Of a stretch of DNA of 17,463 nucleotides, positions 2,127-17,463 are shown piece after piece. Source of the stretch: Candidatus Wukongarchaeum yapensis (GTDB lineage Archaea; Asgardarchaeota; Wukongarchaeia; Wukongarchaeales; Wukongarchaeaceae); the NCBI GenBank assembly GCA_016840425.1, contig JAEOSI010000022.1, positions 1-17,463 on the forward strand, given 5' to 3'. Each line of letters begins with the position of its first letter. Position 1 is the first letter of the stretch. The notes beneath the pieces are model-generated. The model ran no database searches. It worked only from the letters and a program-made list of their open reading frames with translations, and was not told the origin of the DNA. The position numbers and the translations under genes are program-made.

Positions 2127-2128
2127 GC

Positions 2129-2662
2129 CTAATCCCCTTCTTTGCCTCCTACAATGATGAAAACAGGATTTTCAGGTTTGAACGCCATCCCTCCTTGTAA
2201 ATCATAACCCTTAGAGACCTGTACATGCACTACTTCTTTAAAATTCCCCAGCTCCCTCATCTTTTTAATAGCAGTGATCGCCGTTTCCAATCGTGCCGCA
2301 TTAACAATAATCCTTCGCCTAACCTTAGATTCGAGAACAGTTAAAGTTTCTTCAAGATTTTCCGAACCCCCAATGAACACAGAATCAATTTCTTCTACTT
2401 TTTCCAATGCTTGAGGAGTTTCTCCATGAATAAGTTCAATTTTGTGAGATACACCCGCCAAATGAAAGTTAAACTTTGATGCTTCAATCGCTTCTTTTCT
2501 GCGATCTATCGCAAATATTTTGCCTGCAACTTTCGCCGCCGCTATAGATACAGCCCCAGTTCCACAACCCACATCTAAAAAAGTATCGCCGTCTCTGAGA
2601 TCCAACTTGTAGAGAGTAATCGCTAAGATCTCTTCCTTAGTAGGCCCACCCTTAACCTTCAT
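2129..2662 (-). CDS. cbiT: Cobalt-precorrin-6B C15-methyltransferase (decarboxylating)
   Basis: GGPTKEEI, SAM-binding LDVGCGTGAVS, FIGGS and IVNAARLET motifs. ATG at 2662 preferred over the upstream TTG at 2701 used by the ORF track. Confidence 0.9.
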   Translation of the reverse strand: MKVKGGPTKEEILAITLYKLDLRDGDTFLDVGCGTGAVSIAAAKVAGKIFAIDRRKEAIEASKFNFHLAGVSHKIELIHGETPQALEKVEEIDSVFIGGSENLEETLTVLESKVRRRIIVNAARLETAITAIKKMRELGNFKEVVHVQVSKGYDLQGGMAFKPENPVFIIVGGKEGD

Positions 2663-2764
2663 AAATCGCTGTTCCAAGCTATTATTACCCCCATAACACA
2701 AAATAGAACGCTTTTTTAACGTCCTGTATTGAATAATAGCCTACTTATTAACGAAGTAAATATC

Positions 2765-2780
2765 TAGGTTTCTCTTCCTA
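2765..2780. promoter_or_regulatory. TAGG-N8-CCTA inverted repeat, copy 1 (candidate operator)
   Basis: TAGGTTTCTCTTCCTA, just downstream (minus-strand sense) of the TATA at 2787-2800 facing cbiT. Confidence 0.5.
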
Positions 2781-2786
2781 AGAGAG

Positions 2787-2800
2787 TTTATATATATAAA
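2787..2800. promoter_or_regulatory. Palindromic TATA box (probable cbiT operon promoter, possibly bidirectional)
   Basis: TTTATATATATAAA is a perfect palindrome in the cbiT/cbiX divergent intergenic region. Confidence 0.5.
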
Positions 2801-2834
2801 GGTTTTTCCTAAGTTTTCTTAAATTCTGTCTCTT

Positions 2835-2849
2835 CGAAAAATTTATATT
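2835..2849 (+). promoter_or_regulatory. BRE + TATA for the cbiX-hemA operon
   Basis: CGAAAAA-TTTATATT fits an archaeal purine-rich BRE followed by a TATA box, about 65 nt before the cbiX ATG. Confidence 0.5.
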
Positions 2850-2865
2850 TAGGATGGATATCCTA
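2850..2865. promoter_or_regulatory. TAGG-N8-CCTA inverted repeat, copy 2 (candidate operator)
   Basis: TAGGATGGATATCCTA directly after the TATA at 2842-2849. Confidence 0.5.
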
Positions 2866-2912
2866 CCTATAAAGGTTTACTAATATAAAAGACCATAAAC
2901 ATAGGCAGGCTA

Positions 2913-3317
2913 ATGAATATGGTAAAAAATATCGATATTGAAAAAAATACGGCGAAAGCGATCCTTCTAATAGGTCATGGAAGCAGGCTTCCAGAAAGCA
3001 GTAAAGTTTTAGAAGTTCATGCTGAAAGAATAAAGAAAACAGGAAAATTTGATGAGATACATACCTGTTTTTTGCAATCTGAACCTACTATACAAGATGT
3101 TTTCCCAAAAATCAAGTCAGAAACTATTTTTGTTTTTCCATTCTTTCTTGCCCCTGGGATTCATGTTTCAAAAGATATTCCCCGAATTCTAGGTCTTCAA
3201 GGAAAATATAGCGAAATCAATGGTAAAAAGATCATTTATTGTGATCCTTTAGGTGAAAGCGAATTCATTACAAAAGCTATTCTCCGGCAAATAGAGGAAT
3301 TATGGTCTACCTATTAG
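2913..3317 (+). CDS. cbiX: Short sirohydrochlorin chelatase (CbiXS/CfbA type), probably cobaltochelatase
   Basis: 134 aa; LLIGHGSR and PFFLAPGIHVSKDIP carry the two metal-binding His motifs of class II chelatases. Confidence 0.88.
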   Translation: MNMVKNIDIEKNTAKAILLIGHGSRLPESSKVLEVHAERIKKTGKFDEIHTCFLQSEPTIQDVFPKIKSETIFVFPFFLAPGIHVSKDIPRILGLQGKYSEINGKKIIYCDPLGESEFITKAILRQIEELWSTY

Positions 3318-3417
3318 CTTTGAGGAACACCCTTAATAGAGAGTTTTCTATGAAAAAAGGACTCATAGCTCTCATATTTATCCGTGATATATTATTTGTG
3401 AGGAAGTGGGCTGACGC

Positions 3418-4773
3418 ATGTGTCGCGTTAAATCTTGTCTGACGGTCACGTTACCCAAAATAAACATGAAATATGCAGAGGATCGCTTTGCCCTGCCTAC
3501 CAGTTTGATCAATGTCGGTCTCACTTTTAAAAAAGGTCGTGTAGAACTTCTTGAGTCAATCAGATTTCCAAAAATTGAAGCAGCATTAAAAGATATGATT
3601 TCACTCCCTTCTATTAAGGAGTGTTTAATCATACAAACGTGTAACAGGGTGGAAATTTTCGCAGTTTCTGACGATCCTCATAGCTCTATCACGGCAGTTT
3701 TCGATAACCTTTTAAATAGTTTTCAGCTTGATCCATCAGTTTACTCTTCTCTTTTTGATATTAGAACCAGTAACGAAGTAATAGTTCACGGGTTACGATT
3801 AGCTTCTGGTTTGGAGTCAATGATAATAGGGGAAGATCAAATATTGGGCCAAGTTAAAGAAGCGTTAAATATGGCGGTTAAAGCGGGGACAGTAGGTCCC
3901 TTTTTAAAACTTGTTTTTAGTAGGACCCTCGTGTGTGGTAGGCGGGTTAGAAATGAGACAAGGATTAATAAAGGCGCGGTTTCGATGGGGTCTGCAGCCG
4001 TTGAACTAGCGGAAAGAACCCTTAAAACGCTTAAAGATAAGCATGTTTTGGTTATTGGGGCGGGAGAAATGGGATTTTTGGTAGCAAAAGCGCTTAAGGA
4101 TAAAAAGTGTAACGCTTTATTCATAGCAAATAGAACCTATGGAAGAGCTGTTTGTTTAGCAGAGGAACTGGGAGGTGAAGCTATTCGTTTTGATAATATC
4201 GAGAAAAAGATGGTGGAAGCAGATATTACTATCGTGACTACTTCAGCCCCTCATTACATAATTAGAGGAGATCGTCTAAAACGTGTTTCTTCTATGAGGA
4301 AAAAGGACTTAACAATTATTGACATCGGAAATCCTAGGCAAGTTGAAGATCTTAAAGTCTCGAAAATTTGTTCATACAACATAGATAATCTAAGGATTAT
4401 AGCGGAAGAGAATCTAAAGAAAAGGCTTAACGAGGTTGAAAAAGCTGAGAAGATTGTTGAAGAGGAGTTTGAACGCTTAAGAAAAATGGTTAAGAAATTA
4501 AGTGTTGAACCTCTAATAAAAGCCCTTAATAAAAAATTTGAAAATGTTCGCATACAGGAAATTGAACGTGCCTGTTCCTTCCTTGAACATATTAACTCAA
4601 CTAATGAAATAAAACCCGTCCTTGAAGATCTTTCTAGAGCCATTATACGTAAATCAGTTCACCAAGTTATCCAAACCATAAGAAAAGCTGCGGAAAATGA
4701 TCAAAATGAGATCGTTGAAGCAGCGAAACTTATCTTTAACATAGCAACTGAAAGTGAGGGCGTTAACCTTTGA
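3418..4773 (+). CDS. hemA: Glutamyl-tRNA reductase
   Basis: Catalytic TCNRVE, GLESMIIGEDQILGQVK, NADPH-binding IGAGEMG and IANRT motifs. The true start may be the ATG at 3466. Confidence 0.95.
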   Translation: MCRVKSCLTVTLPKINMKYAEDRFALPTSLINVGLTFKKGRVELLESIRFPKIEAALKDMISLPSIKECLIIQTCNRVEIFAVSDDPHSSITAVFDNLLNSFQLDPSVYSSLFDIRTSNEVIVHGLRLASGLESMIIGEDQILGQVKEALNMAVKAGTVGPFLKLVFSRTLVCGRRVRNETRINKGAVSMGSAAVELAERTLKTLKDKHVLVIGAGEMGFLVAKALKDKKCNALFIANRTYGRAVCLAEELGGEAIRFDNIEKKMVEADITIVTTSAPHYIIRGDRLKRVSSMRKKDLTIIDIGNPRQVEDLKVSKICSYNIDNLRIIAEENLKKRLNEVEKAEKIVEEEFERLRKMVKKLSVEPLIKALNKKFENVRIQEIERACSFLEHINSTNEIKPVLEDLSRAIIRKSVHQVIQTIRKAAENDQNEIVEAAKLIFNIATESEGVNL

Positions 4774-6092
4774 AAACAGGATCATTTAACAACTCTAAGA
4801 ATTTATACGATGAAGCTGTTAGTTTGATGCCTGGCGGCGTTAACTCTCCAGTACGTGCTTTTAAACCCCATCCCATCTTCATAAAAATGGGTAAGGGAAG
4901 CCATATTTTTGATGTCGACAATAATATGTTTATAGACTATTGTATGGCCTTTGGTCCCTTGATTTTAGGTCATAGTCCTCCCGAAGTAGTTGAAGCTGTA
5001 AAAGATCAGTTAGTTAAAGGAACTATGTATGGTATTCCCACTCCTCTTGAAAATGAGCTTGCAAAGCTGGTCATTAAAGGCGTACCTTCCATCGAGATGG
5101 GGCGTCTAGTTAACACAGGAACAGAAGCAACTATGAGCGCAATAAGGCTTGCTAGGGGATACACTGGTAGAGAAAAGATCTTAAAGTTTGAAGGATGCTA
5201 TCACGGTTCTCATGATGCTGTCCTTGTAAAAGCGGGATCTGGCGCCTTAACCTTCGGCACTCCTACTTCTTTAGGTATCCTTAACTCTTTAGCAGAAAAT
5301 ACGTTAGTTCTTCCGTATAATGATCTTGAAGCTTTAGACAAACTTTTCGCCAAAGAAGGGGAAAATATCGCTGCAGTAATCCTTGAACCCGTCGTGGGAA
5401 ACATGGGAGTAGTACTGCCAAAAGCAGGGTATCTTGATGGAATTAGAAAAATCGTGGAAGAGAATGGCACCATACTCATTTTTGATGAAGTAATTAGCGG
5501 GTTTAGGCTGGGATTTGGAGGCGCTCAAGAACATTTCAACATCGATCCAGATTTAACCACCTTAGGTAAAATCTTGGGACACGGGTTCCCTATCGCAGCA
5601 TACGGAGGCAAAAAAGAGATTATGGAAATGGTCACTCCAACAGGGAAAATATATCCTGCGACAATCTCCGCCGATAACGCGGGCAAGGTTTACCAAGCAG
5701 GCACCTTTAGCGGCAACCCGATAAGCGTTATCGCAGGCATCACCGCACTAAAAATGCTGAAAAACAACCCTTGGATTTACCAAGATCTTGAAAGGAAAAC
5801 AAAAGAAATTACTGAAGGATACCGTGATTTAGCTGAGGACTATGGGGTTCAAATACGTTTAAACAGCATCGGATCGATGTGGCAAGTCTTCTTCGCAGAC
5901 CATGAAATCTTTGATCAGGAAACAGCACAAAAATCAGACCTTAAAAAATGGGATAAATACTTCCACAAAATGCTTGAACAAGGAGTATATCTTCCACCAG
6001 GAAACTTCGAAACATGCTTCCTCTCCACAGCTCACACAAAAGAAGACGTTGAAACAACTATTGAAGCTGCATCAAAAGCCCTCCAAGTTTAG
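4770..6092 (+). CDS. hemL: Glutamate-1-semialdehyde 2,1-aminomutase
   Basis: MPGGVNSPVRAF, NTGTEATMSAIRLARG, GCYHGSHD, IFDEVISGFR, PLP-Lys LGKILG and YQAGTFSGNP motifs. TTG start overlaps the hemA stop. Confidence 0.96.
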   Translation: MKTGSFNNSKNLYDEAVSLMPGGVNSPVRAFKPHPIFIKMGKGSHIFDVDNNMFIDYCMAFGPLILGHSPPEVVEAVKDQLVKGTMYGIPTPLENELAKLVIKGVPSIEMGRLVNTGTEATMSAIRLARGYTGREKILKFEGCYHGSHDAVLVKAGSGALTFGTPTSLGILNSLAENTLVLPYNDLEALDKLFAKEGENIAAVILEPVVGNMGVVLPKAGYLDGIRKIVEENGTILIFDEVISGFRLGFGGAQEHFNIDPDLTTLGKILGHGFPIAAYGGKKEIMEMVTPTGKIYPATISADNAGKVYQAGTFSGNPISVIAGITALKMLKNNPWIYQDLERKTKEITEGYRDLAEDYGVQIRLNSIGSMWQVFFADHEIFDQETAQKSDLKKWDKYFHKMLEQGVYLPPGNFETCFLSTAHTKEDVETTIEAASKALQV

Positions 6093-6144
6093 CAGTTCAG
6101 CTTTGTAATAAGCAAATTTATTTTGCTAGTGAAGGTGTTTTCAA

Positions 6145-7092
6145 CTGGAACTCATCGCGGGGACAAGAGGCAGTAAACTTGCAGTAATCCAAACCAAAGA
6201 AGTCATAAACATGCTTAAACGTGCTTTTCCTGATCTAAAATTGCGAACACTGACTATTACTACTACTGCAGATAGTTTTGAAAATGTGCCTCTTCACAAG
6301 ATTAGGGGGAAAGGATTCTTTGTTAAAGAAATAGATGAGGCCCTTATAGAAGGCAGAATTGATTTTGCTGTTCACAGTATGAAAGATGTTCCTACTGAGC
6401 TACCTCAAGGTATCGGAATAGTTGCAACACCTCCACGTAAATCGCCTAATGAAGTGCTTTTCACGCATACAGGCAAGCCTATTGAAAAGTTACCTGAAGG
6501 TGCCATTATCGGCTCTGGAAGTTTTCGACGCATAGCATATTTAAAACGGTTTCGAGAAGACCTTCTTGCAAAACCCATACGAGGAAACGTTGACACAAGG
6601 ATTCGAAAAGTACAGGAAAGAAAATATGATGGCGTCATTTTAGCTGAAGCTGGCCTACAGCGATTAGGTCTTACAAACTACATCACTCAAAGATTCTCTT
6701 TAAACGAGTTTTTACCAGCTGCTGGTCAAGGCATATTAGCTGTTACGGCTCGAAAGGACAACGAAAAAACTCTCCAAGTTTTGAGAAATATAAATGATGA
6801 AAAAACCTTTACAGAAGCCGTTGCAGAAAGAGCATTTATACGGACTATAGGTGGCGGCTGTAAAGTCCCCATAGGTGCTAATACGACATTAAAAAGAAAC
6901 AATTTAATCCTTGAAGGCGAAATTCTCTCATTAAACGGTAAGCAAAGCCTAAAAGCTAGAATAAGTGGCTCACTAAATGAGGCAGAGTTTATAGGAGAAA
7001 AGCTTGCTTATCAGCTTCTAAATTCAGGAGGAGAAACACTAATTAAAAAAGTTGTGAAGGAGATCGAAAACCTTGGTCCAAAAAGCCCTTAA
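6145..7092 (+). CDS. hemC: Porphobilinogen deaminase (hydroxymethylbilane synthase), probable CTG start
   Basis: AVHSMKDVP, GSGSFRR, IRGNVDTR and cofactor Cys in GGGCKVPIG. The conserved N-terminus ELIAGTRGSKLAVIQ is in frame upstream of the ORF-track ATG at 6211. Confidence 0.93.
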   Translation: MELIAGTRGSKLAVIQTKEVINMLKRAFPDLKLRTLTITTTADSFENVPLHKIRGKGFFVKEIDEALIEGRIDFAVHSMKDVPTELPQGIGIVATPPRKSPNEVLFTHTGKPIEKLPEGAIIGSGSFRRIAYLKRFREDLLAKPIRGNVDTRIRKVQERKYDGVILAEAGLQRLGLTNYITQRFSLNEFLPAAGQGILAVTARKDNEKTLQVLRNINDEKTFTEAVAERAFIRTIGGGCKVPIGANTTLKRNNLILEGEILSLNGKQSLKARISGSLNEAEFIGEKLAYQLLNSGGETLIKKVVKEIENLGPKSP

Positions 7093-7135
7093 TTTGATAA
7101 AAGATAACGCGATGAAAGAAGGAAGAGGAGGGAGA

Positions 7136-7879
7136 ATGGCTGGAACTGTTTACATAGTTGGAAGTGGTCCTGGGACTGTAGATCTTTTAACGTTGAAAGC
7201 AGCAATGATTTTATTTAAAGCCAATTTAGTGCTTTTTGACCGTCTTATAGATAAAAAAATTCTTTCTCTTTGCCCAGAAAATGCTGAACTTATAGATGTT
7301 GGTAAAATACCTGGAGAAAACCAGGATGAGAAGCAAAATCGCATCCATGAACTAATGGTTAAATATTCAAAAGAAGGGAAAATGGTGGTTCGATTAAAGG
7401 GTGGAGATCCATTCCTTTTTGGTCGTGGTGGTGAAGAGGCTGAGAAACTTTCAGAGGAAGGAATCCCTTTCGAGGTGGTTCCTGGTGTCACATCTGCGAT
7501 AGCGGTACCTGCTTTTGCAGGAATCCCTGTGACTCACCGGAAAATTTCCAGTTCTTTAGCCATAGTTACAGGCCATGAAGATCCTAAAAAAGAGGGAAAA
7601 AGGATAGATCTTGCTAAAATATCTGAAGCGGTTGACACCCTCGTTATCTTGATGGGTGTTGGAAAGCTTGAAGGAAACATTAAAACTGTCTTAAAAAAGA
7701 GAGCAGGCGATACTCCTGTTGCTTTAATAGAATCAGGGTGCACGGAAAAACAACGGACAATCATTTCAACGTTAAAAAACATAGTGGATGATGCAAAAAA
7801 AGCGAAGGTAAAACCTCCAGCCGTCCTTGTAATAGGCGATGTCGTAAAACTGCGAGAGGCATTAAAATGGTACGAATAA
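7136..7879 (+). CDS. cobA: Uroporphyrinogen-III C-methyltransferase (SUMT)
   Basis: VYIVGSGPG, RLKGGDPFLFGRGGEE, VPGVTSA and VTGHE motifs. Start placed at ATG 7136 after GAGGAGGGAGA. Confidence 0.95.
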   Translation: MAGTVYIVGSGPGTVDLLTLKAAMILFKANLVLFDRLIDKKILSLCPENAELIDVGKIPGENQDEKQNRIHELMVKYSKEGKMVVRLKGGDPFLFGRGGEEAEKLSEEGIPFEVVPGVTSAIAVPAFAGIPVTHRKISSSLAIVTGHEDPKKEGKRIDLAKISEAVDTLVILMGVGKLEGNIKTVLKKRAGDTPVALIESGCTEKQRTIISTLKNIVDDAKKAKVKPPAVLVIGDVVKLREALKWYE

Positions 7880-8742
7880 TGGCAACAAAAAAAGAACAAA
7901 ATAACAGGACAGAAAAAAGGAGAAAAGGACCGGATAAACCCCTTAAGGGGAAGGTTATCGCAATCACTAGGCCAGAAAAACAGGCAAAAAAAATGGCCAC
8001 GCTAATAAAAAATCATGGAGGAAGGCCGTTAATCGTACCTACAATCGAGATAAAACCCAATAAAAACCTGAATGAAATAGTGCAGAAAATAATGGAGAGG
8101 GGAGAAAAGTATGATTTTATAATATTTACAAGCGCTAATGGTGCAAGTCTCTTTATTGACACCCTAATACAGCTTACGGGGGAAAACTATTCCAATTTCT
8201 TTAAAGACGCTAAAATTATAGCCATAGGTTCTAAAACTGCAAAAGAGATAGAAGATAGAGGGATTAGCGTCGACATTGTGCCTAAAAATTTCACATCAGA
8301 AGGGGTAATAGTAACCCTGAAAAGATTTGTCTCTTTTAAAGCTCGTGCTTTATTGCCCCGTGCTTCGAATGTCCCTCCAACCTTAAAAAAAGGACTTGAA
8401 AACCTTGGAATAATAGTAGAAGAAATACCTGTTTATACGATTGCAAAACCGAAAAACGAAACTAAAATCAAAAATCTCGTAAAAGCCGTTATAAACGGAA
8501 AAATAGACATTATAACATTTACAAGTTCCCTAACCGCTATTAACTTGCTAGAAACAGCAAAAAAAGAAAATTTACTAAAACAATTCAAACACGCAATAAA
8601 CAAAGAAAAAACATTAACAGTAGTAGCAATAGGACCAATCACACAAAAAACATTAGAAGATAACGGTATAGAAGTCCACTTAACCCCCAAAAAACAAACC
8701 ATAGAAAGCATGATCAAACTAATAGTTCACCACAAATATTAA
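7879..8742 (+). CDS. hemD: Uroporphyrinogen-III synthase
   Basis: IAITRP, IIFTSANG, AIGSKTA and ITFTSS motifs. ATG at 7879 overlaps the cobA stop (TAATG). Confidence 0.9.
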   Translation: MATKKEQNNRTEKRRKGPDKPLKGKVIAITRPEKQAKKMATLIKNHGGRPLIVPTIEIKPNKNLNEIVQKIMERGEKYDFIIFTSANGASLFIDTLIQLTGENYSNFFKDAKIIAIGSKTAKEIEDRGISVDIVPKNFTSEGVIVTLKRFVSFKARALLPRASNVPPTLKKGLENLGIIVEEIPVYTIAKPKNETKIKNLVKAVINGKIDIITFTSSLTAINLLETAKKENLLKQFKHAINKEKTLTVVAIGPITQKTLEDNGIEVHLTPKKQTIESMIKLIVHHKY

Positions 8743-8795
8743 CAAAGTAGTAAACATTAACTCCCGAATTAGACTCAATTCAAAGCCTTTTTAAC

Positions 8796-9770
8796 TTATT
8801 TTAGCCGTTTTGCGATATCTTTTGCGAAATAGGTGAGGATAATGTCTGCTCCTGCCCTTTTTATCGAAGTCAAAGTTTCCATAACTACTCTTTTTTCATC
8901 AATCCATCTCTTTTCAGCTGCAGCTTTTATCATGGCAAACTCGCCACTAACATTATAAGCTGCTGTAACGACTTTAAATTTCGTTTTTATCCTGTAAAGG
9001 ATGTCTAGATAAGCGAGGGCAGGTTTCACCATGACGATATCTGCTCCTTCCCTTATATCTAACTCTACTTCATGAAGCGCTTCTTCTACATTTCTTGGAT
9101 CCATTTGATAACTTGCTCTGTCTCCAAAAGAGGGAGCAGAGCCCGCAGCTTCCCTAAAAGGTCCGTAAAAACTTGATGCATATTTTGCTGCATAACTCAT
9201 AATTGTTACATCTTCAAACCCTTCTTTATCTAACTCTTTTCTAATGGCGAGAACTCTACCATCCATCATATCAGAAGGTGCTGCTATGTCTGCTCCTGCT
9301 TCTGCATGGCTTACCGCTGTCTTTGCAAGCAGTTTAAGGGTTGGATCGTTCAAAATCTTTCCACCTTCCACAATCCCACAATGCCCATGGGACATATATT
9401 CACAAAGGCAAATATCAGTGATCACCACCAATCTATCTCCCAGCTCTCTCTTTATTTCGCGAACCGTCTGTTGAATAATGCCGTTTTTTGCATAAGCTTG
9501 GCTTGCGATTTCATCCTTTTCCTGGGGTATTCCGAAGAGAATAGTGGCAGGTATCCCAAGTTCAGTTAATTCTATCGCTTCTTTAACCGCGTGCTCTATT
9601 GGGAGCCTATAGTTTCCAGGCATGCTTTGTATAGGCTCAGGTCTTTCAATGTTTTCCTTTACAAAAATCGGGAAAATTAAGTCATTAACAGTCAAAACGG
9701 TTTCTGACACCATATCCCTAATTTTCTTGTTTTTTCGGAGCCTACGCATCCTTTTAAGTGGAAAACTCAT
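8796..9770 (-). CDS. hemB: Porphobilinogen synthase (Zn-type ALA dehydratase)
   Basis: RMRRLR, Zn-binding [40 protein letters not shown] and MVKPA motifs. Confidence 0.97.
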
Positions 9771-9774
9771 CTTT

Positions 9775-10470
9775 TTAACCCTCCTTAAAAGATTTTAACT
9801 CTTTTTCATAACAAACCTGCTCTATAATGGACATAGCAATGTTTTTTGCTTGTTCTATATCGTTTTCGTCAAGGGCACGATCAACCTTTAAATCCACTAA
9901 AATCCTTTTTAAAAGGGCTTTTCTTTCCCTTTCTTCAGGTATCCTGCGTTTAATTATTTTCCTTGCATAAGCTTGAATCTCCACCATCATCTTCTCTTTT
10001 TCCCGAACAATTTTTGAAATCTTTCGCTTTAAGTACGCTGACATGAGGGGGCTTCTACCACTAGTTGCTACAGCAACTGTTATACTATTCTCCTCGAAAA
10101 TAGCTGGAAAGATAACATTACCCTCCCCCCTCCCATCAACTCTGTTTATTAAAACACCCTTAGAAGAACCTGCCTTATGAATCACTTCGTTCAATTCAAG
10201 ATCATTCGTGGCAATAATCAAAAGAAAAGCATCACCTATTAAACGCGAGATTTCCCCTTCATCCAAAGCATTAAGCTTTGCAGAGATCATTTGCAATTTT
10301 CCCTCTCTGGCAAACTTCTTTATTGTATTGCTAAAACTTTCACTAACCACATCTAACATCTTGCATTTGTCTACAAGTTGTTTAACCTTTCTCGTCCCCA
10401 CCTTTCCGCCACCAAAGATCACCACATGCTTCTTAGTAAGATCTATAAAAAGCGGAAAATATTCCACCAT
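9775..10470 (-). CDS. sirC: Precorrin-2 dehydrogenase (SirC / CysG N-terminal-like)
   Basis: FPLFIDL, Rossmann [18 protein letters not shown] and VATSGRSP motifs; start placed at ATG 10470. Confidence 0.85.
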
Positions 10471-10547
10471 TTTCAACCACAACCAAAAACTTCATCCTAC
10501 AAATCCGGCCCAGTTTACTTGAAAGCTTTTCATTCACTTTTTGTAGA

Positions 10548-11438
10548 TCAAACGCCTAAAAGCTGATCCACATAATCGAAGTCTATAGTCTCACCCACGA
10601 TATTACAAAATTTATCAAGGTTTTGCAGCCAAACTTTCCTCACATCATCTAAGTTACTATTGGTTTTTTTGGTGTTTCTTTTTTGTGGGTTGAAACGTGT
10701 TATGTTAAGGGTTATCGAGTCTTCTGCAGGGAGGACAAGGTCTTCTATGTAGGGCACTACGCCTAAAACTCTTTTTTTTGTTCTTTTTTCAAGGTATTTT
10801 ATGCCTGGTTCCAGTATCTTTTGGTCTCCTCTAAACTTGTTAATAATAAAGCCTTTAATGAGCTTCTTTTCCGGATATCTTAACAGTTCTAAGGTTCCAA
10901 TTAAGCCTGCAAAAACACCTCCAGGGTCAATATCCCCAATCATCAAAACGGGAGAGTCGAAGATCTGTGCAACACGCATGTTAGAAATATCACTTTTCAT
11001 TAAGTTTATCTCGCTTGGGGCTCCCGCTCCCTCAATAATTACCATATCATAACGGTTCAACAAATCTTTCAATGCTTCTCTAATGCGAGGAAAACCCTCC
11101 TTTATTGCAAAGTATTTCCGATAATCTGGAAAACTCATATCCTGATAAGGTTTTCCAAAAAGGATAATCTGGACTTTTTCCCCTCCTTTAGGCTTTAAAA
11201 GGATCGGATTCATCATTTCAGCGGGTTCTATGTTACACGCCATGGCTTGAAACGCTTGAGCTACAGCAATTTCTCGACCATTAGCGGTAACAAAAGAGTT
11301 TAGAGAAAGATTTTGTGCTTTAAAAGGAGCAACATTATATCCCATCTTAGAGTAAATCCTGCAAAAAGCAGCTGTAAACAAGCTTTTACCACTATGCGTC
11401 AACGTGCTTTGAAACATTAACGAACAAGCCTTTTCCAT
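10548..11438 (-). CDS. Cobyric acid synthase paralog with synthetase domain only (no glutaminase domain)
   Basis: P-loop STLTHSGKS, PFKAQNLSLNS, NPILLKP, IEGAGAPSEINL, INKFRGD and LPAEDS motifs are present. No GxCGGYQ or GTYLHG motif. The frame is intact at 296 aa. Confidence 0.85.
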   Translation of the reverse strand: MEKACSLMFQSTLTHSGKSLFTAAFCRIYSKMGYNVAPFKAQNLSLNSFVTANGREIAVAQAFQAMACNIEPAEMMNPILLKPKGGEKVQIILFGKPYQDMSFPDYRKYFAIKEGFPRIREALKDLLNRYDMVIIEGAGAPSEINLMKSDISNMRVAQIFDSPVLMIGDIDPGGVFAGLIGTLELLRYPEKKLIKGFIINKFRGDQKILEPGIKYLEKRTKKRVLGVVPYIEDLVLPAEDSITLNITRFNPQKRNTKKTNSNLDDVRKVWLQNLDKFCNIVGETIDFDYVDQLLGV

Positions 11439-11443
11439 TCGCC

Positions 11444-13378
11444 TTAACTCTCCACAAAAGGTAACTCTAAGAAGCGAAAAATTTCCGTCATTCTAACTTT
11501 TTCAGTGACAACTCTTGTCAATCTATCCAAACTTTCCTCTATCACTTCACGCCTAGTAACCGATCTTTCATCAAATTTTTCAACAACTTTTTTCTCTCCC
11601 CTCTTCTTTTTAAGATAGTTAATCAACGGTTTACGTAATCCTGGATAATCAAAAACCCCATGCAAATAAGTACCCAAAACCGTCATCTCCTTATTCAAAG
11701 CCCCTTCTAAACAGTCTACATCATCCTTCCCCCGCTTAAAGATATTAAAAGGCGCTTTCACATCTTTTCCCCTCTCAGTCACCCCCATATGAATCTCATA
11801 TCCAGAAATCCTCCTTCTTTTCTCCAGAAATCCTCCATCAATCACTATCTCGCCCTTAACCTGTGTCGTAACCTTATCATAAACGTCAAAAACTGTCACC
11901 ACATCTAAAAGGCCAAGCCCCTCGTATGTAGCGCCAACATCTCCCTCCAATCCCTTTTCATCCACAATTCTTTTTCCTATTATTTGATAGCCACCACAAA
12001 CACCAATAACAGGAACGCCCTCCGCCGCCATTTTAACTATGGTTGAAGCCAAATCAGTATCCCTCAACCATAAAAGATCTTTAACCGTGTTTTTCGTTCC
12101 AGGAACTATTATGAGGGAAACATCCTCAAGCTCCCTTGGAGAACGAATAAACTTAACGTAGACGTCTTCATGACTCGCTAAAGCATCAAAATCGGTAAAA
12201 TTAGAAATTCTTGGCAGACGAATCACGCCAATTACAACACTCGCGTCTCCCCTCGTCCCTTTATCTTTTATACCCACGGAATCCTCTTCAGGAAGTTGCA
12301 GATCTTCAAGGAAAGGAATGATACCCAAGACCGGAATCCTCGTCCTTATTTTCAACTCCACAATTCCTGGATCAAGATTTTTAGGGTTGCCCCTAAACTT
12401 ATTAATAACAGCACCTTTAACAATCCTTTTTTCCGCTTCTGAAAGTAATAAGAGTGTCCCGTAAAGATACGCGAAAACGCCGCCTCGTTCAATATCTGCC
12501 ACTAAAATCGCTGGAAAGTTCTCCTCTACAGCTATTCTAAGGTTTGAAATATCAAAATCTTTAATGTTAATCTCTGCAGGACTACCAGCTCCCTCGATAA
12601 TTATGATGTCAAATTCTTCCTTAAGTTTTTTAAGCGCTTTTTTAACTACCTCAAAACCTTTACCTGTAGAAAAGTTTGCGTAGTATGATCTACCGTCCAT
12701 GTCAGCATAAGGTTTACCAAGAACAATAACCTGGGACATCATGTCTCCTTTAGGTTTAAGCAGTATGGGATTCATCTCAGCCTGTGGTTCCACTTTTGCA
12801 GCAATAGCCTGAAGCGTTTGCGCCCACGCTATCTCCGCCCCTTCTCTCGTCACAAAAGAGTTCAAACTCATATTCTGCGCCTTAAAAGGTGCAACCCTAA
12901 ACCCAGCATCAGAAAAAATCCTACAAAGAGCCGCTACAAGAAGACTCTTACCCGCGTTAGACGAAGTTCCTACCACCATAAGCAACCTAGCATGGTTATC
13001 TCCCTCAAAATTAATACCCAAAATCTTCCGACGAATTTTAAGAAGCTCTTCACGCGTTAATTTTGCCCCACCTTCCACTTCTCTTACTTCTTTTAAAATG
13101 CGTTCAACAACCTCGGGCTCATGAACCCACCTACACTCTTTACAACTCCACCGCCACTTCCTAGAACGTCTCCCTTTTACCATCATACCTCCCGTATAAG
13201 GATCCATACAAGGATAAAAAGGACAAAAACAAAAAGTACAATCCTGTCCCTCAAAATGACAAGTACTCCCATACTTAAGATAATAGGGGCAATCTACCCT
13301 TATACCCACCGGGGCTTTAATCTCTTTTAAATCGTCCCAGCCTTGATTTTGAGCCTTATGTCCTTTTACATTCATCAA
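11444..13378 (-). CDS. cbiP: Cobyric acid synthase with N-terminal Cys-rich small domain
   Basis: GTSSNAGKS, PFKAQNMSLNS, EGAGSPAEIN, RLPRISNFTDFDAL, GVCGGYQ, GYEIH and GTYLHG motifs. About 125-aa N-terminal extension with 8 Cys. Start is TTG 13378 or ATG 13375. Confidence 0.95.
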   Translation of the reverse strand: MMNVKGHKAQNQGWDDLKEIKAPVGIRVDCPYYLKYGSTCHFEGQDCTFCFCPFYPCMDPYTGGMMVKGRRSRKWRWSCKECRWVHEPEVVERILKEVREVEGGAKLTREELLKIRRKILGINFEGDNHARLLMVVGTSSNAGKSLLVAALCRIFSDAGFRVAPFKAQNMSLNSFVTREGAEIAWAQTLQAIAAKVEPQAEMNPILLKPKGDMMSQVIVLGKPYADMDGRSYYANFSTGKGFEVVKKALKKLKEEFDIIIIEGAGSPAEINIKDFDISNLRIAVEENFPAILVADIERGGVFAYLYGTLLLLSEAEKRIVKGAVINKFRGNPKNLDPGIVELKIRTRIPVLGIIPFLEDLQLPEEDSVGIKDKGTRGDASVVIGVIRLPRISNFTDFDALASHEDVYVKFIRSPRELEDVSLIIVPGTKNTVKDLLWLRDTDLASTIVKMAAEGVPVIGVCGGYQIIGKRIVDEKGLEGDVGATYEGLGLLDVVTVFDVYDKVTTQVKGEIVIDGGFLEKRRRISGYEIHMGVTERGKDVKAPFNIFKRGKDDVDCLEGALNKEMTVLGTYLHGVFDYPGLRKPLINYLKKKRGEKKVVEKFDERSVTRREVIEESLDRLTRVVTEKVRMTEIFRFLELPFVES

Positions 13379-13438
13379 ATTTCCTCACAAATCATGCTTT
13401 CTACTAAGATTTAACTTGCATTATCTCACCAATATCCA

Positions 13439-13446
13439 CTTATAAA
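13439..13446 (-). promoter_or_regulatory. Probable TATA box of the cbiP operon
   Basis: TTTATAAG on the minus strand, about 60 nt upstream of the cbiP start. Confidence 0.4.
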
Positions 13447-13450
13447 CATA

Positions 13451-13466
13451 TAGGTTAATTAACCTA
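13451..13466. promoter_or_regulatory. Perfect 16-bp palindrome, TAGG-N8-CCTA copy 3
   Basis: TAGGTTAATTAACCTA, adjacent to the putative BRE/TATA of cbiP. Confidence 0.55.
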
Positions 13467-13475
13467 CCCTTACTT

Positions 13476-13519
13476 TGTATTACGATTGTATTACAGAACA
13501 CAACTTTTAAGTACTAACT
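13476..13519 (+). promoter_or_regulatory. Tandem GTANTAC boxes + BRE/TATA upstream of the trpD-like gene
   Basis: TGTATTAC-GAT-TGTATTAC-AGAACACAAC-TTTTAAGTA; 37/44 identical to 17160-17203. Confidence 0.7.
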
Positions 13520-13601
13520 TATCAGCGGTTGCGGTATATTTTGGCAAAATTAAACCTATTATACAAATCTGTTAGAACAAAGGTAAAGGAGTTTCAAGGA
13601 A

Positions 13602-14714
13602 ATGGTTTTTGATGGGTTGATGTTGAAAGATTTTGGTGCTAAGGTGTATAGATTAATAAAGGGTAAAAGCCTCACAAGGGAAGAAGTTAGAGAGATGATG
13701 AAACAAACACTTTTAAACGAACAACCAGATCTCCATCAAGGCGCTTTTCTTGCAGCGATAACAGCGAAAGATTCTACTCCTGAGGAGATTGCTGGTTGTT
13801 GGGAAGCTGTATATGAGTATGATACTGTGAAAGTTACTCCAAATGTTTCAGGACCTTTGGTTGAAAATTGTGGCACGGGAATGGATGACATTAAAACTTT
13901 TAATATTAGTACTGCGGCGGCGGTAGTGGGCGCAGCTGGGGGTGTTTATATGGCTAAACATGGGGCAAGGGCTATAACTTCTAAGTGTGGTGCTGTGGAT
14001 ATAGCAGAAGCTTTGGGTGTAGATGTTGAATGTAATCCCGAGCTTGTGGAGAAGAGTATAGAGAACGCTGGAATCGGGCTCTTTAACGGGATGAGTTTAA
14101 AAATTCATTCAAAAATGGCTAGGATTTTGGCTCAAATCAGGTTTGGTTCAATTTTGAACATTTCAGCATCCCTTGCTAATCCCGCCCTTCCACCCTATGG
14201 AGTGAGGGGGGTTTATTCAAAAGATTTAGTCGTGCTTGTTGCCAAAGCGATGAAAGAGATTGGTTATGAAAGGGCTCTTGTGTTTTGCGGTTTGAATGGT
14301 GATCAGACAAAGGTTATAGACGAGATCTCAATCCTTGGTGAAACTTTTATAGCTGAAATTTCTGAAAAGAACGGAATTGCCACGTATACGGTTACCCCTG
14401 AGGAATTTATGATAAAGCGTTGTGATGAGGGCGCGATACTTTCAACAGGAGATGTGGAAAAAGAGAGTTTAAGTCTTTTAAGGATTTTAAGCGGTAAGGA
14501 TAAGGGACCAAGGTTTGAGATATTATGCCTTAATGTTGCCCCCATACTTTACATAACAGGCAAAGCTAAAAGTCTTGGAGAAGGATATAAGATGGCAAAA
14601 GAGATCATTGATTCTGGAAAAGCGATTGATAAGCTTAGAGAATGGCTAAAAGAGCAAAACAGTGACCCTGATAAAGCTGAGAAAAGGCTTGGAAAATTGT
14701 TAGAAAATGCCTAA
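13602..14714 (+). CDS. Anthranilate phosphoribosyltransferase-like protein (glycosyltransferase family 3), probably not acting on anthranilate
   Basis: ENCGTGMD..TFNIST, AKHGAR, LANPA and DEIS match the TrpD fold. The canonical GTGGD and KHGN motifs are altered, and no trp genes lie nearby. Confidence 0.8.
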   Translation: MVFDGLMLKDFGAKVYRLIKGKSLTREEVREMMKQTLLNEQPDLHQGAFLAAITAKDSTPEEIAGCWEAVYEYDTVKVTPNVSGPLVENCGTGMDDIKTFNISTAAAVVGAAGGVYMAKHGARAITSKCGAVDIAEALGVDVECNPELVEKSIENAGIGLFNGMSLKIHSKMARILAQIRFGSILNISASLANPALPPYGVRGVYSKDLVVLVAKAMKEIGYERALVFCGLNGDQTKVIDEISILGETFIAEISEKNGIATYTVTPEEFMIKRCDEGAILSTGDVEKESLSLLRILSGKDKGPRFEILCLNVAPILYITGKAKSLGEGYKMAKEIIDSGKAIDKLREWLKEQNSDPDKAEKRLGKLLENA

Positions 14715-14890
14715 AAAAAGAAAGAAGGAAAAAACCTCCATGCTCTCTTGAAAATAAGTTTTGTGGAATTTTCCACGCGATTTTATTTTTTTTGCTCTTT
14801 TAATCTCGTTTTTCTTTTTTAGCTCCTTGATTTCGACGCTTTTGCTTTTCTTTCGAGGTAGTTGGCACGACTTTAGAAGGTGACACTTTG

Positions 14891-15943
14891 ATGAAGGCAG
14901 CGATTTTGAAGCGTGTATGCGAGATGAAAGTAATGGAATTTGAGAGGCCTCAAGTTGTTTCTGGTGGTCTTTTAGTCGAGGTTGGCGCGTGTGGGATATG
15001 TCGTACTGATGTTAAAATGTATCACAAGGGTCACAGGGATTTAAAATTGCCTCGTGTCCTCGGTCATGAAGTTAGTGGTACCATTCTGGAGGTTGGGAGA
15101 GAGGTAAAAGAATATTTTGATGTGGATATGCGTGTTCAAATAGCGCCAGGCATTGTTTGCGGCATGTGTCGTTACTGTCTTATGGACGCTCCTAATATGT
15201 GTGATCGTATGCGCATTATTGGATTTCATCTTGATGGAGGGTTTGCGGAATACATATGGGTGCCTCCTAGCGCTATTAGGAGTGGTTGTGTAAATCCCCT
15301 TCCTCCAAGTCTTTCTTTTGAGGTCGCGTCTCTTGTAGAGTTGTTGGCATGTTGCATTAATAGTCAGCGGCTTGCCAGGGTGGGATTAAAGGACGTTGTA
15401 GTGGTTATTGGTTGCGGTCCTGCTGGAGTGTTGCAGGCTAAACTTGCTCGTTTTTTTGGAGCAGAAAGCGTGATAGTTATTGAGAAGGACCCTAAAAGGG
15501 TGGAGATGGCAAAACAGGTTGTTAGAGAAGCTGACATGGTTGTCAACAGTTCTTCTGAAGATCCTTTGGAGGTGGTTGCTTCTGTTACGGATGGTAGAGG
15601 GGCAGATGTAGTTATTATCGCTTGTTCTAATGGTAATGCCCAGCTTCAAGGTTTGGAGATGCTTGCTAAACGTGGGCGTTTAAGCATGTTTAGCGGACTT
15701 CCTTCAGAAACCCCAGTTATCTTGTTGAACAGTAATGAGATTCATTATAAAGAGGCACAAATTATTGGAGCTTATGGTTGTACTTCTTTACAAAATCATC
15801 AAGCTATATGGTTGCTTGGAAGTGAAAAAATAGACGTTTCTGGTTTGATAACTCATCGTTTTAAGCTTGATGATATACTAGAAGGGTTCAAGATCATAGA
15901 AATCAAAAAAGGACTTAAAGCCGTGATTAAAACAAAAAAATAG
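14891..15943 (+). CDS. Zn-dependent medium-chain dehydrogenase (sorbitol/iditol/threonine dehydrogenase-like)
   Basis: Catalytic Zn motifs CGICRTD and LGHE, structural Zn CGMCRYC-x7-C, and NAD-binding IGCGPAG. ATG 14891 follows an in-frame TTG at 14888. Confidence 0.9.
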   Translation: MKAAILKRVCEMKVMEFERPQVVSGGLLVEVGACGICRTDVKMYHKGHRDLKLPRVLGHEVSGTILEVGREVKEYFDVDMRVQIAPGIVCGMCRYCLMDAPNMCDRMRIIGFHLDGGFAEYIWVPPSAIRSGCVNPLPPSLSFEVASLVELLACCINSQRLARVGLKDVVVVIGCGPAGVLQAKLARFFGAESVIVIEKDPKRVEMAKQVVREADMVVNSSSEDPLEVVASVTDGRGADVVIIACSNGNAQLQGLEMLAKRGRLSMFSGLPSETPVILLNSNEIHYKEAQIIGAYGCTSLQNHQAIWLLGSEKIDVSGLITHRFKLDDILEGFKIIEIKKGLKAVIKTKK

Positions 15944-16072
15944 GAGGTATTTTTGAGAAAATTTCAACCTTTTCTTTGTGGATAAAGATGTAAAAGATGA
16001 GAGAATGGAATGATTCGGGTTTTTTACCAGTTAATTTTTTAGTATAAAGTGAAGTTTTTGATGTAGTAAAGG

Positions 16073-16088
16073 TAAATATACGTAGTAC
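16073..16088 (+). promoter_or_regulatory. TATA-like box followed by one GTAGTAC box upstream of the RHH-CblS gene
   Basis: TAAATATA-C-GTAGTAC; a 1-mismatch box TGTAGTAA lies at 16062-16069. Confidence 0.35.
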
Positions 16089-16159
16089 TAGTTTTTGAGT
16101 GTTTTTTGATAAGGGGATAAAGTCACTAGCTTTAGACTAAGCCACAGGAGTGGGTAATA

Positions 16160-17089
16160 GTGGGAACTAAGGTAGTAAACTGTCGTTTACCAGAAAAGAC
16201 CGTAGATGAATTAAACGCTTTTGCTAAACGTTTCAACTTAACTAAATCTAGCATAATAAGACAAGCTTTAATCACTTACATAGAAATGCTAAAAAACGCG
16301 AACCAAATCTTGGTTCCGAATTTTAAGGTTAATCCTTCACAATTAGCAATAAACAGAAGACATAACTGCACTTTTATACGATTCCCAAATAAAATGGTCT
16401 TAGTGTTAGGTTGTATTTCCTCAGGTAGTATCGGGCCTAATTCTATGGATAAATTAAAGGTTAGCGGGTTTCTTCTAGGAAAGTTAACTACTAGGGCCGC
16501 TTTAATGGACATTATATCGATTAATGCTTGGCCAATATCAATTGCAGCAACATTATGTGTGAAAATGGACCCAACAGGATCGGAAATAATAAGGGGAATT
16601 AAAACAGAAATGGTTAGAGCAGATCTAGATCCGTTAATTTTAACCGTAGATACGGAAGAGAATTTTGATACCGAACAAACAGGCATCGGCCTAACTGTTA
16701 TAGGATTAACTCATGAAGAAGATTTGAAAATCGGAACAAGTCAAATAGGTGACGTGATAATAGCTGTAGGAAAACCATGTGTTGGTCAAGAAGTACTAGA
16801 AGCAAAATCACGTAAAGAAATAGCGGATTTAAAAGATATTATAAGCTTTTTGAAGCTTGAGTATGTACATGGAATAATGCCTGTTGATACAGAAGGAATA
16901 CTTAGCAAAGCTAACCTATTAGCTCATTCGATCGGTAAAAATGTAAAGTTCTACGAAAACATCAAATTTGATTTAGAGAAGTCAGCTGGTCCTTCTACAA
17001 CAGTGTTAGTTACGGTCGACAAGAATAAAGTAAAAGAGTTTTTAAAATATTTGTATAAACCTTATTCTCTTATTGGAGAAATCGTCTAA
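16160..17089 (+). CDS. Ribbon-helix-helix DNA-binding domain fused to an alpha-ribazole kinase (CblS)/PurM-like domain; putative transcription factor
   Basis: Residues 1-45 (KVVNCRLPEKTVDELNAFAKRFNLTKSSIIRQAL) follow the CopG/NikR RHH pattern. The remainder has CblS-type motifs MDPTGSEIIRGI, TEENF, QTGIGLTVIG, VGKPCVGQEV and KSAGPSTTVLV. GTG start 7 nt after AGGAGTG. Confidence 0.8.
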   Translation: MGTKVVNCRLPEKTVDELNAFAKRFNLTKSSIIRQALITYIEMLKNANQILVPNFKVNPSQLAINRRHNCTFIRFPNKMVLVLGCISSGSIGPNSMDKLKVSGFLLGKLTTRAALMDIISINAWPISIAATLCVKMDPTGSEIIRGIKTEMVRADLDPLILTVDTEENFDTEQTGIGLTVIGLTHEEDLKIGTSQIGDVIIAVGKPCVGQEVLEAKSRKEIADLKDIISFLKLEYVHGIMPVDTEGILSKANLLAHSIGKNVKFYENIKFDLEKSAGPSTTVLVTVDKNKVKEFLKYLYKPYSLIGEIV

Positions 17090-17158
17090 AACTTTTTTTA
17101 AATTAGCGAAAACGTGCCAAAATAACTTAAAGAACAACGAAACATTTATTCTAAACTT

Positions 17159-17203
17159 CTGTACTACAACTGTAGTACAGAACACAACTTTTAAATATCA
17201 ACT
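17159..17203 (+). promoter_or_regulatory. Tandem GTANTAC boxes (perfect 10-bp inverted repeat) + BRE/TATA upstream of cobT
   Basis: CTGTACTACA-AC-TGTAGTACAG followed by AACACAAC-TTTTAAATA. Confidence 0.72.
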
Positions 17204-17315
17204 CTTAACCTAAGAGCAGAAAAACACTTACTCTACACTTACGTACTACAATATTATTAACCCTACAATGAAAATAACCCTCGATCTGAGCGTATTTTGA
17301 AGGAGGTAAATTTTT

Positions 17316-17463
17316 ATGAAGGACGTAATTTTTGCTCGTGCAAAGGAAAAAGGCGAGGAATTTGTCAGGAAGATAAAGGGTAAAACCCCTGTTTTTGTAT
17401 GCGTTATAGGCAACTCTGAAACAGGAAAAATACCTGGCTTATCCGCTGCAGGCGCAGTTCCAG
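17316..17463 (+). CDS. cobT: Archaeal-type nicotinate-nucleotide:benzimidazole phosphoribosyltransferase, N-terminal 49 aa (runs off window)
   Basis: Manual translation MKDVIFARAKEKGEEFVRKIKGKTPVFVCVIGNSETGKIPGLSAAGAVP. ETxxIPGxSAAGA is the N-terminal signature of the archaeal CobT (MJ1598-type) family. SD AGGAGGT at 17301-17307. Confidence 0.82.
   Translation, partial: MKDVIFARAKEKGEEFVRKIKGKTPVFVCVIGNSETGKIPGLSAAGAVP

Follow-up and report, generated by a model that had tools for sequence, protein, structure and literature searches.

A putative operator-controlled regulon of the cobamide lower-ligand branch in Candidatus Wukongarchaeum yapensis

The lower ligand that a microbe attaches to its cobamide decides who can use that cobamide. 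Among predicted cobamide producers, 42% are without known genes for base synthesis or for phenolic attachment (PMC6461909). The closest described systems that supply a base to CobT are the BluB/CobT2 fusion of Propionibacterium freudenreichii, where the enzyme joined to CobT produces the base and passes it on by channelling (PMC4657239), and the bzaAB/bzaF-cobT-bzaCDE operons. The locus described here likewise combines an accessory enzyme fused to or clustered with CobT in its relatives and B12-regulated operons, but it draws on other enzyme families, with neither a BluB of the nitroreductase fold nor a ThiC-like protein of the radical-SAM type, and in some genomes the genes coexist with Bza-type clusters. 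The locus lies in a 17,463-nucleotide stretch of DNA from Candidatus Wukongarchaeum yapensis (assembly GCA_016840425.1, contig JAEOSI010000022.1; hereafter the window), in which four genes encode a paralog of anthranilate phosphoribosyltransferase (TrpD), a zinc-dependent dehydrogenase of the medium-chain dehydrogenase/reductase (MDR) family, a CblS-like protein with a ribbon-helix-helix (RHH) domain, and CobT. As a first-pass annotation of the sequence had indicated, all four are present in 13602-17463 and co-oriented on the plus strand. We estimate at roughly 60% the probability that they represent an operator-controlled archaeal copy of a cobamide lower-ligand module, within which the individual parts carry grades of their own. 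On sequence grounds, the region 13471-17463 is a putative regulon of the lower-ligand (nucleotide-loop) branch of cobamide metabolism.

The evidence that carries this reading comes from the first two genes. The MDR gene is the direct neighbour of the TrpD paralog, with the same orientation, in 43 of 43 related loci, most of which have the pair as a self-contained transcription unit. The bearers include Methanosarcinales, Methanothrix, Methanomassiliicoccus, Methanolliviera, Dehalococcoidia, Bacillota, Desulfobacterota, Kiritimatiellia and Spirochaetes, among others. A gene of the same MDR cluster, as defined by our own clustering, occurs in only one of the 42 loci of canonical TrpD used as controls. 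On the coding strand of 24 of the 30 bacterial loci we found the RF00174 cobalamin riboswitch (58-115 bits), which is directly upstream of the pair in 23 of the 30; the same search found none in eight canonical trpD control loci totalling 145 kb. The pair is also tied to CobT. An archaeal-type CobT gene lies directly upstream of it in five loci of Methanosarcinales/Methanothrix (L021, L023, L025, L031 and L032), and a bacterial-type one adjoins it in Methanolliviera (L028) and in a member of the Dehalococcoidia (L022), where cbiB and cobD come before CobT, and cobS and btuFCD after it. In four further loci, all from Desulfobacterota (L044, L053, L058 and L059), a single open reading frame directly after the paralog encodes MDR and CobT together. 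The linkage of the orthologs to cobamide genes on which the first-pass annotation had staked its proposal is thus borne out, with the pair adjacent throughout, a riboswitch upstream in most bacterial loci, and CobT adjacent in seven loci and fused in four. We consider it very probable that the pair works in cobamide lower-ligand/nucleotide-loop metabolism.

What is conserved is, however, not the set of four genes. The proposal of an undescribed lower-ligand module stands for the pair, with or without CobT, but not for the whole quartet as a unit. Judged by its sequence relatives, the pair in the window would be the archaeal copy of a widely but patchily spread module that is riboswitch-linked in bacteria and often found beside, or fused to, CobT. 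Among 151 evenly sampled Desulfobacterota genomes it occurs in seven (about 4%), a rarity that fits an accessory function. A bacterial CobT is encoded in 28 of the 30 bacterial genomes with the module, and the genomes with the fusion hold additional CobT hits. We found no paper in the literature that describes the pair, although a published Chlorobium cobalamin region lists 'trpD' and 'DH' without comment (PMC8620254).

Some of the genomes that bear the module also contain more familiar routes to a lower ligand. The Eubacterium limosum metagenome-assembled genome (MAG) carries bzaA-bzaB-cobT, and it is the only one with a gene above the cut-off of TIGR04386, the other ThiC-like genes scoring best as ThiC; NCBIfam has no BzaF model, and ThiC-like genes number from zero to three per module genome, with one in the genome of the window. 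Second clusters centred on cobT, with a ThiC-like gene (BzaF-type or BzaAB) beside it, are found at G060:C5:1178030-1180480, G069:C144:6245-8449 and G054:C137:5610-9364, the cobT of G069 being split by a stop or a frameshift. Other genes also recur around the pair. MotA/ExbB-like and DUF2149 genes accompany the module in a member of the Desulfobacteria (L034:5171-9083) and in one of the Halobacteriota (L019:422-5359, together with CobN), which suggests co-transfer with a set for cobalt or corrinoid uptake or chelation. In Methanothrix and Methanosarcinales (L021:9094-11748, L023, L031 and L032) an AI-2E-family permease and a MiaB-like radical-SAM methylthiotransferase follow the unit formed by cobT, the MDR gene and the TrpD paralog.

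The TrpD paralog (13602-14714, plus strand, 370 amino acids; Pfam domains Glycos_transf_3 and Glycos_trans_3N) has the two-domain fold of TrpD, a class IV phosphoribosyltransferase of glycosyltransferase family 3 (PDB 9ucw, 1zyk and 1zvw), at 35-40% identity. It scores 264.4 bits with the trpD model TIGR01245, above the cut-off of 199. The canonical TrpD of the same genome, to which it is about 36% identical, scores 410 bits and is encoded in a trpD-C-F-B-A operon on another contig (C106); the genome thus does not depend on the paralog as its only TrpD, the second circumstance that would have told against the proposal of the first-pass annotation. A search of 40 relatives from the phylum, one of them of the same genus, gave no ortholog of the paralog. 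By contrast, a collection of 5.8 billion proteins contains many relatives at 58-68% identity, from Halobacteriota, Methanophagales, Methanosarcinales, Nitrososphaerales, Chloroflexi/Dehalococcoidia and Thermodesulfobacteriota. Those among its relatives in the collection that bear a name are all called anthranilate phosphoribosyltransferase, a public label that can mislead reconstructions of tryptophan synthesis.

A scan of species-representative genomes yielded 38 loci of the paralog at 45-61% identity, and 42 loci of canonical TrpD at 40% or less served as controls. In a tree of 87 sequences, a single branch with an SH-aLRT value of 100 parts the paralog clade from canonical TrpD. The motif GTGMD is present in 44 of the 44 clade members, as against GTGGD in the canonical controls (G94M being invariant), a count to be read with the fact that GTGMD was part of one of the two peptide patterns by which the loci were retrieved; 18 sequences of an alignment (A1) gathered by word matching have the motif too. 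The clade keeps GTG.D, TFNxST, (K/R)HG.R and the Mg-binding DE, TFNxST and DE being without variation among the canonical sequences as well as within the clade. On the other hand, KHGNR has lost its Asn to Ala or another residue, the GP of LGPLTNP is altered, the clade reading (A)(A)SLANP, and opposite the invariant Arg of the canonical V-R-x-x-L-G motif at the anthranilate site MAFFT and phmmer alignments alike place an invariant Leu. We read these changes as those of an enzyme whose phosphoribosyl pyrophosphate (PRPP) site has apparently been kept and whose acceptor site has apparently been rebuilt. The context differs from that of TrpD as well. None of the clade loci contains a trp gene, whereas trpG, B, E, C, A and F occur in the controls, and the paralog is always accompanied by the MDR gene, under predicted B12 control, in a genome that in the case of the window has its own canonical TrpD.

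The MDR dehydrogenase, of the NAD type (14888-15943, plus strand, 351 amino acids; ADH_N and ADH_zinc_N), resembles threonine and polyol dehydrogenases. Its homologs begin with MKAA, which makes the ATG at 14891 the likely true start. The best NCBIfam model is that of L-threonine 3-dehydrogenase (Tdh; TIGR00692), at 195 bits far below the cut-off of 458, and NF003808 gives 183 bits against 380; models of scyllo-inosose and polyol dehydrogenases score nearly as high, and the best PDB matches are the threonine dehydrogenases 2dfv, 2d8a and 3gfb (E about 1e-39). Of the catalytic Cys, His, Glu and Glu, C38 and E61 are conserved at 0.95 across 44 members, E151 is invariant and H60 falls under the threshold of 0.9; the structural-zinc cysteines C91, C94, C97 and C105 are conserved at 0.98 or more, and the GxGxxG glycines G175, G177 and G180 are invariant. 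Since zinc ligands and GxGxxG are kept, the protein is predicted to be a working-type dehydrogenase. With Tdh and the polyol Zn-MDRs (2dfv; sorbitol and polyol-phosphate dehydrogenases) it shares the catalytic zinc ligands, the Cys4 loop and GxGxxG; it differs from them in its sub-cut-off score, in clade-specific invariants (GF..DGGF, HY.E and YG), in its constant partnership with the TrpD paralog and in its fusion to CobT in four loci. An alignment-based prediction of a complex between the paralog and the MDR protein returned a score of 0.00, which gives no verdict and weighs neither way.

That the pair is a discrete, operator-equipped cassette is visible in the genome of a close relative. 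The syntenic locus L117/L118, in which the RHH-CblS protein is 79% identical to that of the window, is without exactly the segment 13471-16118, a 2.65-kb stretch comprising the operator/promoter, the TrpD paralog and the MDR gene, and has 68 unrelated base pairs in its place. In blastn comparisons L117 7406-7891 corresponds to window 12983-13470, and L117 7960-9303 to window 16119-17461, at about 85-90% identity, so that in the relative RHH-CblS and cobT directly follow cobQ. The window and this relative form a natural pair of loci with and without the cassette. Gain by transfer in the lineage of the window is favoured, because the paralog is absent from the 40 phylum relatives; a loss in the lineage of L117 is possible, because that locus is also without about 2 kb of cobQ.

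The cassette begins with a promoter block that recurs before cobT. The block 13476-13519 consists of operator 1, TGTATTAC-GAT-TGTATTACA (13476-13495, plus strand), followed by AACTTTTAAGTA, which resembles a transcription factor B recognition element with a TATA box (BRE/TATA), about 97 nt before the start codon of the TrpD paralog. Operator 2, TTCTGTACTACA-AC-TGTAGTACAGAA, with the BRE/TATA-like AACTTTTAAATA (17157-17203, plus strand), lies upstream of cobT and is a perfect 12-nt inverted repeat with arms at 17157-17168 and 17171-17182. A third half-site, GTACTACA (17243-17250, plus strand), is situated between the TATA box and the start of cobT. A repeat search (family D1) aligned the blocks 13476-13519 and 17160-17203 with 84% identity over 44 nt. 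Each contains two GTAnTAC half-sites, palindromic in themselves and 11 bp apart, and after them AACTTTTAA(G/A)TA, which to us reads as a probable archaeal BRE/TATA element. The shared operator that the first-pass annotation had seen is therefore real, one copy of the 44-nt block standing before the first and one before the last of the four genes.

In the 2.16-Mb genome the 20-nt operator pattern occurs at the two sites of the window and on one other contig, C203, and a control with the reversed pattern gave no match. We ruled out C203 as a third independent site, since this contig repeats the window's end in variant form. In the close relative L117 the operator of cobT, at 9000-9025, differs in its spacer but not in its arms, and the third half-site is retained at 9085. 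Operator-like inverted repeats of similar design adjoin the orthologs of RHH-CblS in seven loci from several lineages (L114, L028, L019, L115, L119 and L117/L118). Exact matches to GTAnTACA-NN-TGTAnTAC in the 40 phylum relatives are restricted to single sites in two genomes, at G008:C7:21557-21574 (L120) and G021:C1:85117-85134 (L121), both in intergenic-looking DNA; no RHH-CblS was found in either genome with the query used, and these matches may be due to chance or belong to unrelated targets. No Rfam family, RF00174 included, was detected in the window or in five archaeal module loci, whereas the same two genes are cargo of the RF00174 regulon in 23 bacterial loci. Rodionov and colleagues reportedly mentioned, in the abstract of a 2003 article in JBC, an archaeal 'CBL-box' for a hypothetical B12 regulator.

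A candidate for the protein that acts on these operators is encoded by the third gene (16160-17089, plus strand, 309 amino acids), the product of which consists of an RHH_1 domain at residues 9-42 and a PurM/AIRS-like body. With 22 bits the RHH_1 match (PF01402) exceeds its cut-off of 20.5, and for residues 2-49 the RHH domain of PutA is the best match in the PDB (E 0.017). An AlphaFold (AF2) model with a pLDDT of 86 has helices at 12-25 and 29-50, the RHH domain covering about residues 4-50, and matches SelD, HypE, ThiL and PurM at E about 1e-14, as expected for the PurM-superfamily fold. The Atlas clusters nearest to the body are named alpha-ribazole kinase, and a profile of 17 family members aligned with P0040 from Paenisporosarcina at 99.4% hhalign probability (E 5e-21). 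P0040 follows a component of the energy-coupling factor (ECF) type at the end of a cobD-cobU-cobS-cobC-pduO operon and is CblS by context, in the classic cblT-cblS arrangement. The contexts of the RHH-fused orthologs are all related to cobamides: cobT, cbiB, cobD, cbiZ and btuF in L114; DUF71, btuFCD, cobA and cobW in L113; two B12-radical-SAM genes in L115; the TrpD-paralog/MDR pair in L019 and L028; and, in L119, a CblT-like ECF component and a PfkB kinase (7015-8419) downstream of RHH-CblS and its operator-like repeat.

One residue sets the RHH-fused forms apart from the stand-alone ones. The Asp of the motif (T/C)D(N/S)(S/A)GGIG, presumably a Mg-ATP ligand by analogy with enzymes of the PurM superfamily, has given way to Ile in the window protein and to Ile or Thr across 12 of 12 RHH-fused forms, but is kept in five of five stand-alone archaeal forms (about 255 amino acids) and in P0040. 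In a genome of the same genus (G001), a stand-alone CblS-like gene with the Asp directly follows cobT, and no GTAnTAC site occurs in that locus. With the CblS of the cblT-cblS salvage system of Bacillota the RHH-CblS protein shares the homology of its body, the PurM fold and, in one ortholog, a CblT-like neighbour; it differs in its N-terminal RHH domain and in the exchange of Asp for Ile or Thr. Regulators of the PutA, BirA, NadR and NikR type likewise join a DNA-binding part to a metabolite-binding fold; here the DNA-binding part is of the RHH kind, with palindromic operators whose half-sites are one helical turn apart, and the differences lie in a sensor related to PurM-fold kinases and in cobamide lower-ligand targets, to which binding is putative. 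Because similar operators sit beside its orthologs, we lean, by a modest degree, towards RHH-CblS being the regulator that binds the operators. It would recognise GTAnTAC-N4-GTAnTAC, and its kinase-derived domain would probably sense alpha-ribazole, alpha-ribazole phosphate or a related ligand, as a protein substitute for the riboswitch.

An active salvage kinase, whose RHH domain would at most autoregulate while another factor binds the operator, is a possibility to which we give clearly less weight. It agrees with the homology to CblS, with the retention of most other residues conserved in the family and with the CblT-like ECF component next to the L119 ortholog. It has to contend, however, with the replacement of the Asp in every RHH-fused form and its conservation in CblS and the stand-alone forms, with a separate PfkB-type kinase after the transporter gene of L119, and with the operator-like repeats that accompany RHH-CblS in seven loci and are missing from the G001 locus with the stand-alone form. 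Of the view that the third gene encodes a CblS for alpha-ribazole salvage, the homology thus holds, but with its conserved Asp lost the protein resembles a regulator derived from a kinase.

Two further observations concern the surroundings of RHH-CblS. The PfkB-family gene of L119, which resembles ribokinases and nucleoside kinases, could be a non-orthologous alpha-ribazole kinase in a lineage where the CblS-like domain has become a sensor. A gene for a DUF71/Dph6-like ATP pyrophosphatase stands directly upstream of RHH-CblS, overlapping or abutting it, in L113 (5342-6004) and L119 (5339-6001), and adjoins it in L019 (6060-6761); the DUF71 family has been predicted to act in B12 salvage (PMC3541065).

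As to the chemistry of the pair, we tentatively propose a scheme of PRPP transfer, then redox, then delivery to CobT, which we regard as a possibility and no firmer. The TrpD paralog would use PRPP to phosphoribosylate an N-nucleophile acceptor other than anthranilate, the MDR enzyme would then oxidise or reduce the ribosyl- or ribulosyl-phosphate part of the product, and the outcome would be a base or base precursor passed to a dedicated CobT. The fusion of MDR and CobT may be read as a supply of base to CobT because the partner in BluB/CobT2, by analogy, makes and channels the base. Several other chemistries can be envisaged. The paralog might be a nicotinate phosphoribosyltransferase that remakes nicotinate mononucleotide (NaMN) from the nicotinate released by CobT, so that base and PRPP would together give the alpha-ribotide. 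Chemical reasoning lends this some appeal, nicotinate being shaped like anthranilate, with its nitrogen one carbon away from the carboxyl-bearing carbon; the PRPP/Mg motifs are kept, the module is tightly linked to CobT, and a strong match to a PncB-type nicotinate phosphoribosyltransferase is present in only three of 39 module genomes, with none at E<=1e-10 in 31. Yet the absence of PncB is common in anaerobes and the control search matched six of 14 reference genomes, so that this last point does not discriminate; the need for recycling would be that of every CobT user, whereas the module is rare (7/151 Desulfobacterota); and the MDR enzyme, present in 43 of 43 loci and itself the partner fused to CobT, is left without a role. 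We therefore hold donor recycling to be unlikely.

A role for both enzymes is offered by a route that bypasses CobT, in which the paralog would make a beta-ribotide or riboside of the lower base from PRPP and the MDR enzyme would convert it to the alpha form for a CblS-type kinase or CobS, inverting the anomeric centre by way of a transient keto sugar. Mattes and Escalante-Semerena are said to have postulated in 2017 an unidentified route from dimethylbenzimidazole (DMB) to alpha-ribazole, and CblS-like genes stand beside the pair in the window, L019 and L028. But CobT, present in 28 of 30 bacterial module genomes and adjacent or fused to the pair, would be redundant under such a route, the CblS-like neighbour in the window is without the conserved Asp, and we know of no precedent for an MDR enzyme as a nucleotide anomerase, all of which makes the route quite unlikely. 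More unlikely still is a supply of the linker, with the MDR enzyme, aided by the paralog, providing aminopropanol or its phosphate from threonine in organisms without PduX. The best-scoring named relatives of the MDR protein are indeed L-threonine 3-dehydrogenases, and CbiB and CobD are found near the pair in L022 and L036; however, the Tdh score is far under the cut-off and nearly equalled by the scyllo-inosose/polyol models, the PRPP enzyme has nothing to do, linkage and fusion are specific to CobT and not to CobD/CbiB, and a patchy distribution of about 4% is unlike that of a generally missing step. Finally, the pair might not be biosynthetic for cobamides at all. B12-independent isozymes such as metE and nrdDG are likewise under the control of cobalamin riboswitches (PMC8620254), and the paralog scores above the TIGR01245 cut-off, so that a B12-independent bypass, or ordinary tryptophan or threonine metabolism near cob genes, has to be considered. 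This we regard as highly improbable, given the fusion and adjacency specific to CobT, clade loci free of trp genes with the canonical trp operon elsewhere in the genome, and the loss of the anthranilate-site Asn and alteration of GTGGD in all 44 members.

The preferred reading of an operator-controlled lower-ligand module, and its mechanistic scheme in particular, has a number of observations weighing against it. The reaction of the pair is a proposal from sequence for which no acceptor can be named, and to our knowledge no common cellular o-diamine or aromatic amine presents itself as an obvious substrate. The Arg-to-Leu change at the anthranilate site of the paralog may be an artefact of register, as an invariant Arg (R174) lies two residues upstream of L176 and the R-x5-R spacing is kept. 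That RHH-CblS may bind DNA is suggested by association; its own promoter in the window holds at most one half-site, and none of the cob genes of the reference set lies near the exact operator matches in G008 and G021. The operator precedes only the TrpD paralog, which is parted from the MDR gene by 173 nt with T-runs. Lastly, at least three genomes (G054, G060 and G069) have BzaAB or ThiC-like/CobT clusters in addition to the module. Coexistence with CobT and Bza-type clusters implies that the pair replaces neither CobT nor simply Bza; it looks like a parallel feed, in places with a CobT of its own. The most far-reaching version of our reading is doubtful: the pair would add a third way of obtaining a lower ligand or lower-ligand precursor, starting from PRPP, needing neither oxygen nor radical SAM chemistry and served by a dedicated CobT, while RHH-CblS would be the first protein transcription factor of the archaeal cobamide pathway, with a former alpha-ribazole kinase as its sensor.

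The remainder of the window is consistent with a setting in tetrapyrrole metabolism. The window is contig C178 of a 2.16-Mb MAG (G000) that is 92% complete, and in databases its proteins have their nearest relatives under the label Asgard group archaeon. Profile searches place tetrapyrrole and cobamide genes throughout 1-13378, among them cbiG, cbiF, cbiL and cbiT on the minus strand, and hemA, hemL, hemC, cobA, hemD, hemB and the gene for precorrin-2 dehydrogenase. To call this a complete corrin-ring cluster, as was done at first, overstates its content, since cbiH, D, J, E, C and A are absent from the window. A small CbiX/CfbA-like chelatase of 134 amino acids (2913-3317) scores 94 bits against a CfbA cut-off of 120, a sub-cut-off score that does not tell cobalt from nickel insertion. 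Two cobQ-like genes stand in tandem on the minus strand: at 10548-11438 an N-terminal half of 296 amino acids that matches positions 2-244 only of the 480 of the CobQ model, and at 11444-13378 a full CobQ of 644 amino acids with an N-terminal Cys-rich zf-like domain (PF04071). The relative L117 is without about 2 kb across parts of both, with remnants of 118 and 129 amino acids left.

At the other end, the archaeal-type cobT (17316-17463, plus strand) is cut by the end of the contig after its first 49 amino acids, which score 28 bits with TIGR00303. The full-length CobT is found on C203, where it is 98% identical to the fragment in the window and scores 405.7 bits against a cut-off of 240. This 4.3-kb contig (L006) duplicates window 16745-17463, that is, the C-terminus of RHH-CblS, the operator and cobT, at about 88-98% identity, and probably reflects strain heterogeneity in the MAG and not a second locus.

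What is new for this locus is the riboswitch-free archaeal version of the module, its duplicated operator/promoter, the loci with and without the cassette, and the comparative case for RHH-CblS as a regulator. A defined operator and a candidate protein together offer a candidate answer to how archaeal cobamide genes are regulated where no riboswitch is detected. The pair itself may be a missing step that is B12-regulated, coupled to CobT and outside the textbook pathway, and it is directly testable because it involves two soluble enzymes of well-understood folds. Its carriers are methanogens, archaea that cycle alkanes and methane, Dehalococcoidia, sulfate reducers and acetogens.

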